This document shows positions 34,834 to 47,380 of a stretch of DNA of 59,851 nt, piece after piece; the stretch's first letter is position 1, and each line of letters starts with the position of its first letter. The DNA comes from Gemmatimonadaceae bacterium. Its GTDB lineage: Bacteria > Gemmatimonadota > Gemmatimonadetes > Gemmatimonadales > Gemmatimonadaceae. Below the pieces are notes generated by a model, which searched no databases, was not told the origin of the DNA, and saw only the letters and a program-made list of their open reading frames with translations. Made by a program: the position numbers and the translations under genes. The stretch is taken from the NCBI GenBank assembly GCA_016741895.1, contig JACVCT010000001.1:1-59851 (forward strand), given 5' to 3'.

Positions 34834-35831
34834 GTGATCACACGGCCCACCCGACCACCGACCTCGCATCGCGCCGCGACGACATCATCACACGCGGCCG
34901 CCGCGTCCTCGAGCAGGAAGCCCAGGCGCTGCTGCAGCAGGAGCGCCAGCTGGGCGAGCCGTTTGCACGCGCCGTGGCGCTGCTCACCGACTGCCGCGGC
35001 CGCGTCATCATTGCCGGCGTGGGCAAGTCCGGCAACGTGGCGCGCAAGATGGCCGCGACCTTCACCAGCACGGGTACTCCTGCACTCTTCCTGCATCCGG
35101 TGGAGAGTGTGCACGGGGACCTCGGCATCGTGGGCCCCGATGACGTCGCCATCCTCATCTCGAAGAGCGGCGAAAGCGACGAACTGCTGGGCCTCATTGA
35201 GGCGCTGGCGCGCATGGGCGTGCGCATGATCGCGATGACGGCCGTCCCCAGCTCGCGACTCGCGCGGCACGCGGACGTGACGCTGGACTTGCTGGTGCGC
35301 GAAGAGGCCTGTCCGCACGATCTCGCGCCCACCACGAGCACCACCGTCACCATGGCGCTGGGCGATGCGCTGGCGGTGGCGGTGCTGCTCGAGAAGGGCT
35401 TCCGCCCCGAGGACTTCGCGCGCCTGCATCCCGGGGGCGCGCTCGGTCGTCGGCTGCTCACACGCGTGCAGGACGTCATGGAACGCAACGAACTGCCGGT
35501 ACTGCCCCGCAGCGCGACCATGCGCGACGCGGTGGTGCTGCTGGCAAAACGCCGCGGCCTGGCCATCGTAACGGAACAGGGGCGCGTGTTGGGGGTGGTC
35601 ACGGCAGGGGACCTCACGCGGCTCATGCAGCGCGAGGCCGACGTGCTGTCGGAACCGGTCGCCAACGTGATGAGCGCGTCACCGCGCGTGGCCTACGAAC
35701 ATGAATTGGGGAGTGCAGTCGTGCATCGGATGGAAACCCACGGCATCATGGCGATGCCGGTGCTGGATGACCGTGAGGCGCTGGTGGGCGTTGTGCACCT
35801 GCACGACCTGATGCGCGCCGGAGCCGCATGA
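34830..35831 (+). CDS. kdsD: Arabinose-5-phosphate isomerase (KdsD/KpsF; SIS + CBS)
   Basis: GVGKSG, HGDLG, EACPHDLAPTTST, HPGGALG. Confidence 0.95.
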   Translation: MSDHTAHPTTDLASRRDDIITRGRRVLEQEAQALLQQERQLGEPFARAVALLTDCRGRVIIAGVGKSGNVARKMAATFTSTGTPALFLHPVESVHGDLGIVGPDDVAILISKSGESDELLGLIEALARMGVRMIAMTAVPSSRLARHADVTLDLLVREEACPHDLAPTTSTTVTMALGDALAVAVLLEKGFRPEDFARLHPGGALGRRLLTRVQDVMERNELPVLPRSATMRDAVVLLAKRRGLAIVTEQGRVLGVVTAGDLTRLMQREADVLSEPVANVMSASPRVAYEHELGSAVVHRMETHGIMAMPVLDDREALVGVVHLHDLMRAGAA

Positions 35832-36415
35832 GATCCGCGACCATGTGGCAACACGGCATACGACTTGTCGTCGCTTCCCTCGTGACCGTGGTCACGCTGG
35901 GCGCCGCCGCCTGTCCGGCCAAGAACGACAAGAAGGCACCGCCCCGCGCGGCCAAGGCCCTGCTGCCCGACTCGGCCGAGCAGTTGGGCTTTGGGGTGAG
36001 CACCATTCTCACCGACAAGGGCGTCAACAAGGGCGAGTTGCTGGCCGACACCACCTTCACGTATGACGACGGCACACGCCTCGAACTGCGCCGGGTCAAC
36101 CTCACCTTCTTCACCTCCCTTGGCATGAAGGACGGTGTGATGACCTCGCGCGAGGCCACCTACAATGCGCGCCTGTCGCGCATTGAGGCGCGCGGCGACG
36201 TGGTGGTGGTCCGTGAGGACGGCAAGCGTCTCACCACACAGCAGTTGGTGTACGATCAGGTTCGCAATCAGTTCTTCACCGATTCGGCGTTCGTGCTCAC
36301 CGAGCCCAAGCGGGAAATCTCGGGTATCGGCTTCGAGTCGGACCCCGCGCTCACCAATTTCCGCTGTCTGCGGGCCTGCAAGGGTGTCGCACCGGTGAAG
36401 GTCCCCGCGCAGTGA
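35828..36415 (+). CDS. lptC: LPS export protein LptC (lipoprotein-type signal)
   Basis: Between kdsD and lptA/lptB; hydrophobic segment ending AAAC; beta-jellyroll-like ARGDVVV..LTTQQL..GIGFESD. Confidence 0.8.
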   Translation: MRSATMWQHGIRLVVASLVTVVTLGAAACPAKNDKKAPPRAAKALLPDSAEQLGFGVSTILTDKGVNKGELLADTTFTYDDGTRLELRRVNLTFFTSLGMKDGVMTSREATYNARLSRIEARGDVVVVREDGKRLTTQQLVYDQVRNQFFTDSAFVLTEPKREISGIGFESDPALTNFRCLRACKGVAPVKVPAQ

Positions 36416-38334
36416 GCCCTCGCGGTATTGCCCGGCGTCACGCCTGGTGGCGTCTCACGGTGGTCGCCGTGCTGGTGGTCATTGCGGGCTGTCGTGGTGC
36501 GGGCCGCACGCGGCCTTCGGCTCCGGGCGCGGCTGTGCCCGGAGCCGACAGTCAGCGGCCCACCATCGTGCCTGGCGCGCGCCCCGACAGTGCAGCGCGC
36601 GATTCCATCCGCCGCGACAGTCTCGCGCGGGATTCCGCCGTGCGCGCAGCGGCCGAACTCGCCTTGCTGACGCGGGACTCCCTGCGCAAGGACTCGGTGG
36701 CGCGCGTCACCGCGCTGCGCGACTCGCTCGCCCGCGACTCCGTGCGCCGCGATTCGGTCTCGCGCGACTCAGTGGAAAAGGCGCGACGCAAGAAGCGCAC
36801 GGCCACCCGCGAGTGCGTGCTCGATTTTGCGGAATCGCCGCCCGAAACCCGTCTGCTGTACAGTCGCATCTCCGATTCGGTGTCCAACACCTTCATCGGC
36901 GGTGGGTTTGTGGGGCGCTGCCAGGGCGAGCAGAACCGCCTGCGCGCCGACAGCGCCGAACAGTTCCAGCAGGCCGGCGTGGTGAATCTGTATGGCAACG
37001 TGGTCTACGAAGAGATCGGCAAGATGCAGCTGACGGCGGCCCGCGCCACGTACTTCACGCGCGAAGGCCGCCTCTACGCCGACGGCAACGTCGTGGTCAC
37101 GCAGTTGGCCACGGGCAGCACCTTCTCGGGACCCGCCATCGAGTACTACCGGGCCAACGAGGAGCGGCCGTTCGCCCGCATGATCGCGCCCCAGCGGTCC
37201 ACCGCCCGCATGATTGAAAAGGACAGCACCGGACGCCTGCAGCCGCCCGTCGTCATCAGCGCCAACCGCTTCGAGGACGCGGGGGACTCGCTGCTCATGG
37301 CCTGGGGCGACGTGACCATCGAGCGCGAGCGCATCAATGGGCGGAGCGACAGCGCCTCGTTCGACAAGATCAGCCGGATGGCCCGGCTCATCCGCGGCGC
37401 GCGCATCACCAACACCGATACGGCGCAACGTTTCGTGCTCACGGGGGACACCATCAACCTGTACAGCACCGATCGTCAGTTGGACCGCGTGTTTGCGCTG
37501 CACAAGGCCACGGCCACCAACGAACAGCTGGTGCTGAACGCCGAGCGCATCGACATGCGCCTCAAGAACCAGGAGCTCGACGAGGCCTTTGCGTTCGGGG
37601 AGGGCAGGGCGCGAGCCACCACGCCCCAGCAGGATGTCGAAGCGGATTCACTGCGCATCAAGCTCGCGGAGCGCCAGGTGCAGGAAGTCCGGGCCATTGG
37701 TCGCGCCGTCGCCATCGGTACGCCCGATACCCTGCGCATGAAGACCACGGGCAAGGACGTGCTGCGCGGCGACAGCGTGCTGGCGTTCTTCGACACCACA
37801 ACGGCTCCGGCAGATACCGCCAGGCCCCGGGCAGGCGGCCCCACCAAGGCCGGCACCCGGACCCGCTTGCGCGAAATCCGGGCGCTGGGCAACGCCAGTT
37901 CGCTCTTCCACATGGCCAACTCCAGGGGGCCGACCGCCCCACCCGGCATCAACTATGTGCGGGGTGTCCGGATCTACGTGAACTTCGATACCGGGGCCGT
38001 ACACGACGTCCGGGTGGATTCCGCGGCCAGCGGCCTGTATCTCGAACCCGCCCCCGACAGTCTGTCTGACAGCCTCACCACCCGGGACAGCCTGGGACGT
38101 CGGGATACCACCACCCGCCGCCCCAGACCCGATACCTTGCAGCAGTATCGGGTGTCGCAGGCGGGGCCTGACAACCAGGCGGGCCTCCGGCACGCCGGAC
38201 TGGAAGGGGCGAGTATGCTGGCACGACGGCGGGACTCCACCCCGCTGCCATGGCACGCCCCGAATACGCCGGACCGCGCGCCCGCGTGGCTTGATGCATA
38301 CTATTCGACATTCGCCCTCCGACGCCGGACATGA
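36412..38334 (+). CDS. Long LptA/OstA-like lipoprotein with D-S/T repeat arrays
   Basis: Lipobox IAGC; repeated LRADSA / GNVV / WGDVTI jellyroll motifs; occupies the lptA position. Confidence 0.75.
36586..36774 (+). repeat. Coding pentapeptide repeat (R/K/P)-D-S-x-x, 10 copies
   Basis: [19 protein letters not shown]...RDSLRKDSV...[19 protein letters not shown], with varied synonymous codons. Confidence 0.9.
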
Positions 38335-46622: not shown

Positions 46623-46627
46623 CACGA

Positions 46628-47380
46628 ATGCAGACCCCAGCGCGCGGTGCGCTGGCGTTGGGTGAGCGGGGCATCGTCATTGTGCCCACGTACAACGAAA
46701 GCGAGAACATCACGCGCATCGTGCCGCAAATCCTCGACCAGGATTCGCGGCTCGAAGTGCTGGTTGTGGACGACAACTCGCCCGATGGCACCGGCCAGCT
46801 CGCCGACGAAATGGCGGCCGAAAATCCGCGCGTGCATGTGCTGCATCGCCCGGGCAAGGAAGGGCTGGGCCGCGCCTATCTGGCCGGGTTCCGCTGGGCG
46901 CTCGAGCGCGACTACGCGTTCATCTTTGAAATGGACGCCGACTTTTCGCATGACCCGCGGCACCTGCCGGAATTCCTGGCCGCCGTTCGTGATGCGGATC
47001 TGGTGCTGGGCTCACGCTACCGCGACGGCAAGGTCACGGTGGTCAACTGGCCCATGACCCGGCTCATGCTGTCTTACGGCGCCAACATCTACGCGCGTGC
47101 CGTGACCGGCATGCGGCTGGGCGACGGCACCGGTGGCTTCAAGTGCTTCCGGCGGGAAGTGCTGTCCGCCATCCCGCTCGATCAGGTGCGTTCCAACGGT
47201 TACGCCTTCCAGATCGAGATGAGCTTCCGGGCCTGGAAGAAGGGGTTCCGCATCGCGGAAATCCCCATCGTCTTCCATGACCGAACCGAGGGCGAGTCCA
47301 AGATGTCCAAGCGCATCGTGCGCGAAGCCGTGTGGATGGTGTGGCGGCTCCGCTGGTGGGCACTCACCGGTCAGGTCTGA
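46628..47380 (+). CDS. Polyprenol-monophosphomannose synthase (Dpm1/Ppm1-like GT2)
   Basis: PTYNE, DDNSPDGTG, GLGRAY, MDADFSH, GYAFQIE, GESKMS. Confidence 0.88.
   Translation: MQTPARGALALGERGIVIVPTYNESENITRIVPQILDQDSRLEVLVVDDNSPDGTGQLADEMAAENPRVHVLHRPGKEGLGRAYLAGFRWALERDYAFIFEMDADFSHDPRHLPEFLAAVRDADLVLGSRYRDGKVTVVNWPMTRLMLSYGANIYARAVTGMRLGDGTGGFKCFRREVLSAIPLDQVRSNGYAFQIEMSFRAWKKGFRIAEIPIVFHDRTEGESKMSKRIVREAVWMVWRLRWWALTGQV

Follow-up and report, generated by a model that had tools for sequence, protein, structure and literature searches.

A candidate system for general O-glycosylation at D-(S/T)-hydrophobic sites in a Gemmatimonadaceae bacterium and a gene cluster behind rpoN that may serve it

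Why do five genes for making and transferring lipid-linked sugars lie directly behind rpoN in a Gemmatimonadaceae bacterium, and are they connected with the many Asp-Ser/Thr (D-S/T) dipeptides in the envelope proteins encoded just upstream? The question is raised by the beginning of contig JACVCT010000001.1 (GCA_016741895.1), a stretch of 59,851 nucleotides that is called the window here and whose closest named homologues are found in Gemmatimonas and Gemmatimonadaceae. The genes are arranged in the order kdsB, pyrG, kdsA, kdsC, kdsD, lptC, lptA-like, lptB, rpoN, GT2, GT4, UPF0104, YfhO, polyprenol-phosphate-mannose (PPM) synthase and dapF, with the kds and pyrG names being read from the sequences. 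The best explanation, which we hold with moderate confidence, is a Bacteroidota-type general O-glycosylation acting on D-(S/T)-hydrophobic sites (sequons) of periplasm-facing proteins, for which the rpoN-linked cluster would provide the sugars on their lipid carrier as well as one of the two transferases in the membrane. That an O-glycosylation system exists in this organism is very likely, and there is good reason to believe that the cluster serves protein glycosylation. The proteins concerned are the following:

35828..36415, plus strand: LptC, likely glycoprotein acceptor with 3 sequons (PF06835, TIGR04409)
36412..38334, plus strand: LptA-like lipoprotein, likely heavily glycosylated acceptor with 29 sequons (PF03968, weak)
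38331..39230, plus strand: LptB, cytoplasmic, 0 sequons, internal control
39230..40723, plus strand: RpoN, cytoplasmic, 0 sequons, 47 bases from its stop to the start of the cluster
40771..41838, plus strand: GT2 of the ArnC/GtrB type, ending in membrane helices, predicted to be the second synthase of a polyprenol-phosphate sugar
41835..43082, plus strand: GT4 glycosyltransferase, predicted lipid-linked sugar extender (PF00534, PF13439)
43082..44077, plus strand: UPF0104/LPG_synthase_TM membrane protein, putative flippase (PF03706, E 7e-16)
44166..46622, plus strand: GT-C transferase of the YfhO family, homologous over its full length to the YfhO of Bacteroidota
46628..47380, plus strand: PPM synthase-like GT2, predicted mannose donor maker
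57990..59483, minus strand: secreted TPR protein, likely acceptor with 6 sequons
12127..14868, plus strand: UPF0182 membrane protein with 5 sequons, 4 of these in the C-terminal half

The LptA-like protein contains 31 D-S/T dipeptides, 29 of them fitting the sequon, when 7.0 dipeptides are expected, and the remaining counts made by hand in the original prediction also held (LptC 3, TPR protein 6, UPF0182 5, RpoN 0, PyrG 1). The orthologues behave alike: 70 sequons versus 15.8 expected were counted in LptC (n = 15) and 235 versus 33.4 in the LptA-like proteins (n = 14), with 9 versus 13.8 in LptB (n = 15) and 12 versus 20.4 in RpoN (n = 17). For the whole proteome, 3,573 genes from an in-house gene caller were localised by hydropathy rules (311 unclassified, 355 ambiguous), and the observed number of D[ST][AILVMT] motifs was divided by the number expected from 30-residue block shuffles (O/E). 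The O/E values were 1.92 for signal-peptide proteins (n = 494), 2.73 for lipoproteins (n = 134), 1.44 for membrane proteins (n = 681) and 1.07 for cytoplasmic proteins (n = 1,556). Thus, the enrichment in exported over cytoplasmic proteins, which had been put forward as a check, was indeed found. The control motifs E-S/T-x, N-S/T-x, the reversed motif and D-S/T followed by other residues had O/E values at or below 1 in exported proteins. A motif-free ranking of 5,376 tripeptides placed DSL first, DSA second, DSV fifth, DST seventh and DSI eighth. By contrast with the Ser forms, DTA, DTI and DTM were not enriched; therefore, Ser dominates the sequon here, as it does in P. intermedia (PMC10897501). 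At least one site is present in 470 of the 628 exported proteins, and the enrichment persists when the top 20% of the proteins are dropped (1.40 versus 0.63). Moreover, the Ser codon use at the sequons is ordinary and the enrichment is therefore not a DNA repeat.

Within single polypeptides, the enrichment is confined to the periplasmic parts. In two-helix proteins (n = 30), values of 3.26 for the loops and 1.13 for the tails were obtained, and the outer domains of kinases with one helix (10 of 25) reached 3.53 versus 0.97. Barrel-like proteins (n = 18) had a value of 0.91. A matching bias has been described for P. gingivalis (PMC8729774).

Two glycosylation sites in a published structure agree with the sequon. 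O-glycans have been modelled at Thr108 of the cytochrome PufC and at Ser331 of the reaction-centre (RC) subunit RC-M, PufM, in the photosystem of G. phototrophica, with a core of mannose, glucuronic acid and rhamnose as in Pedobacter heparinase II (PMC8849296). In the 7o0u chains, these residues lie in D107-T108-L109 and D330-S331-F332, which places both published sites in a sequon; Phe at the third position belongs to the extended Bacteroidota motif (PMC10897501). The words "motif", "sequon" and "Bacteroid" were not found in the main text of the article on the structure (PMC8849296). The puf genes are present in the genome studied here and both glycan sites are kept. PufM was found in 23 of the 41 genus genomes searched, with D-S-F or D-T-F at the site in all 22 readable sequences (13 S, 9 T), and the PufC site fits the sequon in 21 of 22 genus sequences. 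The C-terminal tail of PufM carries 3-6 sequons in the genus sequences and the preceding core none. The alignments of the non-Gemmatimonas M chains listed extend no further than residue 323; the tail was therefore probably acquired once the genes had been transferred from proteobacteria. The source genome is that of a phototroph, and its PufM tail (G000:C301:14055-15679, L264) has six D-S/T sites that are probably glycosylated. Together, the proteome statistics and the two G. phototrophica sites support the original prediction of an O-glycosylation of envelope proteins at D-S/T in this lineage.

The sequon signal was also followed in other organisms, using samples of about 100-200 kb and exported/cytoplasmic ratios that are given first for the broad motif and then for DS[AILV]. 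Four 200-kb subsamples of the present genome gave ratios of 1.44-2.01, and the sample size is therefore adequate. The signal was found in Bernardetia (1.53 and 1.88), Zixibacteria G121 (2.12 and 2.74), genome G062 (1.70 and 2.77) and WOR-3 G161 (2.30 and 2.61), and in Prevotella for DS[AILV] (2.00); samples from kin are not independent of each other. The negative controls were three, all from proteobacteria: no enrichment was detected in the samples of E. coli (0.76 and 0.94) and X. sacchari (70% G+C; 0.56 and 0.45), and neither value of a Microvirga plasmid (1.05 and 1.40) was significant. This plasmid of an alphaproteobacterium (NZ_CP069357.1; L027 807-5786) carries a YfhO-family gene that is divergent from type I secretion genes and whose product may modify a secreted protein.

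It could be argued that the enrichment is structural or compositional, arising from helix caps or low-complexity linkers, or that it reflects another modification, and that there is no general glycosylation. Indeed, many of the LptA sites are located in repetitive linkers and no glycoproteome for the phylum was found in the literature searches. However, the enrichment is specific to residue order, compartment and lineage and survives the block shuffles, two sequon sites carry modelled glycans and the Ser codons are unremarkable, which makes this explanation highly improbable.

Which enzymes could then build and transfer the glycan? The gene order and the families of the rpoN-linked cluster were confirmed as originally described, with small corrections to the starts: the most likely start of YfhO is ATG 44166 and that of the PPM synthase 46628, and the gene that had been called flippase-like belongs to UPF0104/PF03706. 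The best match of the first GT2 in the PDB is ArnC (E 1e-19), and its NCBIfam matches to ArnC and PgfS are below the cut-off, as is the top NCBIfam match of the GT4, BshA. For the PPM synthase, the best PDB match is a Dol-P-Man synthase (5mlz, E 8e-32), and the match after it has an E value of 5e-09. No GtrA/GtcA-type flippase was found in the cluster, to which this search was confined; UPF0104, a putative flippase, stands in its place. YfhO shares motifs with its Bacteroidota counterparts, has 23% identity over 828 columns to the YfhO of Bernardetia (E 3e-22) and scores 28.1 bits on PF09586, just below the cut-off of 28.5. A quick tree of 23 rows, rooted at the midpoint and without a Firmicute outgroup, places it together with the YfhO proteins of Bacteroidota (SH-aLRT 98). 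Nothing meaningful came up when YfhO was compared as a profile with the sequences in the PDB. Its predicted structure (pLDDT 94.5) has a GT-C fold with AftD as the top match (Z 18.7, 600 residues, root-mean-square deviation 5.2), followed by Pmt1-2 (15.0), DPY19 (14.7), Pmt4 (14.7), PglB (14.5) and ArnT (13.1); AglB is also among the matches.

YfhO was detected in all 121 sampled genomes of the phylum (119 of 119 without the unpublished G055 and G095). At 20 phylum loci chosen for long contigs, its neighbours are GT2 (20), UPF0104 (19), GT4 (18), PPM synthase (18) and rpoN (17). Among the best 80 of 587 YfhO loci, which are mostly from Zixibacteria and Gemmatimonadota, plus TA06 and WOR-3, and include many short contigs, the PPM synthase was found at 57, GT2 at 56, UPF0104 at 50 and GT4 at 33. 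Thus, the GT2-GT4-UPF0104-YfhO-PPM synthase cluster recurs across four phyla. The clusters of relatives carry inserts such as methyltransferases, sugar-nucleotide enzymes or an epimerase and extra GT-Cs resembling protein O-mannosyltransferases (PMTs; 38 hand-picked genes), as in variable glycan loci. At three Zixibacteria loci (L076 3849-8103, L078 5865-7985, L119 4484-6709), the cluster GT2 is directly preceded by genes for proteins of 690-740 residues that have 10-12 membrane helices, carry TPRs at the C-terminus and are possibly further GT-Cs.

It is plausible that the cluster supplies the donor and the flippase. The PPM synthase would make polyprenol-phosphate-mannose, possibly capped with rhamnose, which would be flipped, perhaps by UPF0104. 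A TMEM260-like GT-C that is encoded elsewhere may then link the mannose core to Ser/Thr in the periplasm. The ArnC-like GT2 and the GT4 would build a second lipid-linked block containing glucuronic acid, and YfhO would ligate it, likewise in the periplasm, onto the protein-bound mannose. A role of YfhO as an extender fits its best fold match, the glycan-extending AftD. If the cluster serves the system, this order, with the TMEM260-like enzyme first and YfhO second, appears to have slightly better than an even chance, and the reverse order or YfhO acting alone somewhat less than an even one.

The original prediction overlooked both the TMEM260-like genes, which are a second transferase candidate, and the precedent of the streptococcal YfhO family. 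Three TMEM260-like (PF11028/DUF2723) genes are present in the genome, all outside the window. The family occurs in 120 of 121 phylum genomes (118 of 119 without the two unpublished ones) and in 61 of 61 WOR-3 genomes; B. thetaiotaomicron is the one organism of the 14 controls whose genome contains it. In the parts aligned to human TMEM260, which do not reach the donor-loop stretch with R264 and Y267, the copy on contig C193 keeps the residues matching human D52, H67 and D441, for which key roles have been reported (10.64898/2026.03.17.711096). As read from the sequence, the shorter of the TMEM260-like genes (591 residues; G000:C336:2862-7380) directly follows an ftsH-like gene in a housekeeping run, and the third copy, on C199, lies behind two genes that resemble a sigma/anti-sigma pair.

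P. gingivalis encodes both a putative YfhO and a protein of the DUF2723 family (PMC8729774). The 463 genes listed as essential in this species include the two (PMC3547785), and YfhO is essential in B. thetaiotaomicron, too. The absence of YfhO from P. gingivalis stated in a preprint (10.64898/2026.07.27.740950) was considered as evidence against this enzyme and rejected, as the annotation of PGN_1968 names a putative YfhO/PMT enzyme. In outer-glycan mutants of P. gingivalis, glycans of 308 Da and of 792 Da are numerous and those of intermediate mass are few (PMC8729774, Table 3); this pile-up, the two essential GT-Cs and the two lipid-sugar synthases fit two block transfers. It was also attempted to separate YfhO from the TMEM260-like enzyme by gene loss. 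YfhO was not found in 4 of the 61 WOR-3 genomes, and the three of them that were sampled keep the sequon (pooled ratio 1.91). This argument was withdrawn because the cluster ends at contig breaks in G146, G156 and G144 and the apparent loss in these is an assembly gap.

Several points speak against a protein glycosylation system in which the cluster participates and YfhO acts second. Protein localisation relied on the in-house hydropathy rules and not on SignalP. The modelled glycans come from a relative, G. phototrophica, and not from this organism, and their sugars were assigned by fit to the cryo-EM map with a Pedobacter template, without mass spectrometry (PMC8849296). The broad motif was not significant in Prevotella (1.15, p 0.29) and the signal of G002 was weak (1.34, p 0.03, and 1.37 for DS[AILV]). 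GT-C folds are silent on the acceptor, with Pmt, DPY19 and PglB scoring alike (Z 14.5-15.0). The tight kds-lpt linkage of the cluster in Gemmatimonadota, taken alone, equally fits lipopolysaccharide (LPS). Furthermore, the PPM synthase lies beside YfhO at 57 of 80 loci and beside a TMEM260-like gene at 2 of 120, which favours YfhO as the mannosylating enzyme. The Comstock preprint predicts YfhO to be the Bacteroidota transferase (10.64898/2026.07.27.740950), and the YfhO-family proteins PgtC2 and PgfM1 are required for streptococcal protein glycosylation (10.1101/2024.05.05.592596).

The last points lead to a different assignment, in which YfhO itself links the glycan to Ser/Thr, using as its donor either polyprenol-phosphate-mannose or a longer glycan on a lipid, as produced by the cluster, and the TMEM260-like enzyme adds a branch or serves other proteins. 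Besides the prediction and the streptococcal precedent, the adjacency or near adjacency of YfhO and the PPM synthase (18 of 20 and 57 of 80 loci), the presence of PGN_1968 in P. gingivalis, the exception of the preprint, and the occurrence of PglB and AglB among the fold matches argue in its favour. However, TMEM260 is a proven protein O-mannosyltransferase whose key residues are kept here, its homologue is as universal as YfhO and likewise essential in P. gingivalis, and the top fold match of YfhO, AftD, has a glycan as the acceptor. We regard this assignment as possible but doubtful.

A further question is whether the cluster acts on proteins at all. The TMEM260-like enzyme and unlinked genes might glycosylate the proteins, and the cluster might decorate the LPS core, a glycolipid or a polysaccharide. 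The cluster lies behind kdsABCD-lptCAB, lpxC, lpxB and lpxK are present in the genome, ArnC is the best match of the cluster GT2, Firmicute YfhO glycosylates teichoic acids (10.1101/2024.05.05.592596), and a second YfhO paralogue is found near lpxC in three WOR-3 genomes. In addition, the sequon is enriched in G181 (1.50, p 0.025), where cluster orthologues were not found, although this assembly is fragmented. Against this explanation, the PPM synthase, which either transferase would need, lies in the cluster. Moreover, 12 of the 61 WOR-3 genomes have no lpxC match and these also lack lpxB and waaA matches (G132, G133, G139, G146, G151, G156, G158, G161, G166, G171, G176 and G181), where "not found" refers to assembled genomes and is not proof of absence. 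YfhO is present in 9 of these 12 and two more have a cluster broken at contig ends; the cluster is intact in G161, G166 and G139, and the sequon is enriched in the four that were sampled. LPS-modifying systems such as Arn and Gtr would be expected only alongside lipid A synthesis, a pattern that YfhO does not follow. The retention of the cluster in WOR-3 genomes without lpxC and lpxB matches therefore makes it unlikely that this clade acts on LPS; it speaks against LPS there and not against a glycolipid, which is a possible acceptor. The suggestion in the original prediction that LPS might be the acceptor is weakened accordingly, and we consider it unlikely that the cluster serves only such acceptors. 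All eight lpxC-positive WOR-3 genomes tested contain lpxB; waaA was discarded as an LPS marker, being present in only four of them.

In G156, lptB-rpoN is still present, and an exported protein encoded upstream (L174 14133-15038) has 10 sequons, which suggests that LPS was lost and Lpt genes were retained. The second, divergent YfhO of WOR-3 lies a few genes from lpxC, beside a UPF0104-sized membrane protein, in G149 (L218 10065-13238), G169 (L219 10364-13537) and G154 (L220 7912-11136); the quick tree separates it from the cluster clade, and its acceptor may differ.

Other parts of the window are less closely connected with the system. The original prediction had also invoked a phosphomannomutase, which is present; because it lies about 29 kb from the cluster, between nuoN and UPF0182, it is not linked evidence:

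10726..12105, plus strand: phosphomannomutase/phosphoglucomutase (PgmG 520 bits, cut-off 600), which could feed GDP-mannose

As had been noted, other genes are usual behind rpoN; in Xanthomonas, it is followed by raiA and a phosphotransferase system (PTS) IIA gene. Just before kdsB, on the opposite strand (29796-30737, minus), lies a gene for a membrane protein that we presume to be TerC-like from its appearance.

Literature searches, which covered few subscription papers, found no description of this system in Gemmatimonadota, and a 2025 review names, in the text available, only Bacteroidota (PMC12645811). The enzyme that transfers the glycan to the protein and those that build the core in Bacteroidota are described as still to be identified (PMC8729774; 10.64898/2026.07.27.740950). 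While YfhO has already been proposed as the Bacteroidota transferase (10.64898/2026.07.27.740950), it is new here that the cryo-EM glycan sites match the sequon, that the cluster persists without detectable lipid A genes and that the P. gingivalis data bear on both enzymes. The clustering of candidate genes outside Bacteroidota provides a short list, namely the PPM synthase, the ArnC-like GT2, the GT4, UPF0104, YfhO and the unlinked TMEM260-like enzyme. Moreover, a "phylum-wide" system of Bacteroidota is widened to several phyla, the sequon accounts for two unremarked glycans in a published structure, and it offers a three-residue tag for glycoengineering. As a tentative wider picture, the D-S/T system may be ancient in Bacteroidota, Gemmatimonadota, Zixibacteria, TA06 and WOR-3, outlasting LPS in some of them, and may depend on two essential GT-Cs, with the TMEM260 homologue starting and YfhO completing the glycan. 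The cluster would then be the early pathway that has been missing for more than 15 years, and transferred photosystem proteins would have been recruited by gaining sequons.

The general O-glycosylation of Bacteroidota (B. fragilis, T. forsythia, P. gingivalis, P. intermedia, F. johnsoniae and Pedobacter) is among the closest known systems. The two agree in their sequon and its preference for DS(L/V/I), in having extracytoplasmic targets with barrels being spared and in the presence of YfhO and DUF2723 homologues; in G. phototrophica, the mannose/glucuronic acid/rhamnose core was modelled by map fit. The Bacteroidota system differs in having been described for that phylum, whereas the signal is seen here in Gemmatimonadota and also in Zixibacteria and WOR-3, and in that yfhO of Bacteroides lies beside sahH or luxS (10.64898/2026.07.27.740950), whereas the candidate early genes are clustered after rpoN here. 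The streptococcal GtrB-PgtC2 and PgfS-PgfM1-PgfM2 systems likewise combine a GT2 polyprenol-phosphate-sugar synthase with a YfhO-family GT-C for extracytoplasmic Ser/Thr, and the Pgf cluster has two GT-Cs; however, the targets as reported are Ser/Thr-rich disordered tracts that receive glucose or N-acetylgalactosamine and have no Asp-led sequon, and the sequence likeness consists of a weak C-terminal match to PgfM2 (E 5e-4). Human TMEM260 (PF11028; PDB 9rql), a protein O-mannosyltransferase, has three homologues here, with the equivalents of D52, H67 and D441 kept in the C193 copy. It differs in recognising a long signature of IPT domains (10.64898/2026.03.17.711096); literature searches found no activity for any bacterial member of the TMEM260 family. 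Finally, the CsbB-GtcA-YfhO systems for lipoteichoic acid glycosylation in Bacillus and Listeria have the same three-component layout with a YfhO-family GT-C, and both a polyprenol-phosphate-sugar synthase and a transferase of the GT-C fold are found in the present cluster; by contrast, UPF0104 replaces GtcA here, a GT4 and a second synthase are added and the host is a diderm.

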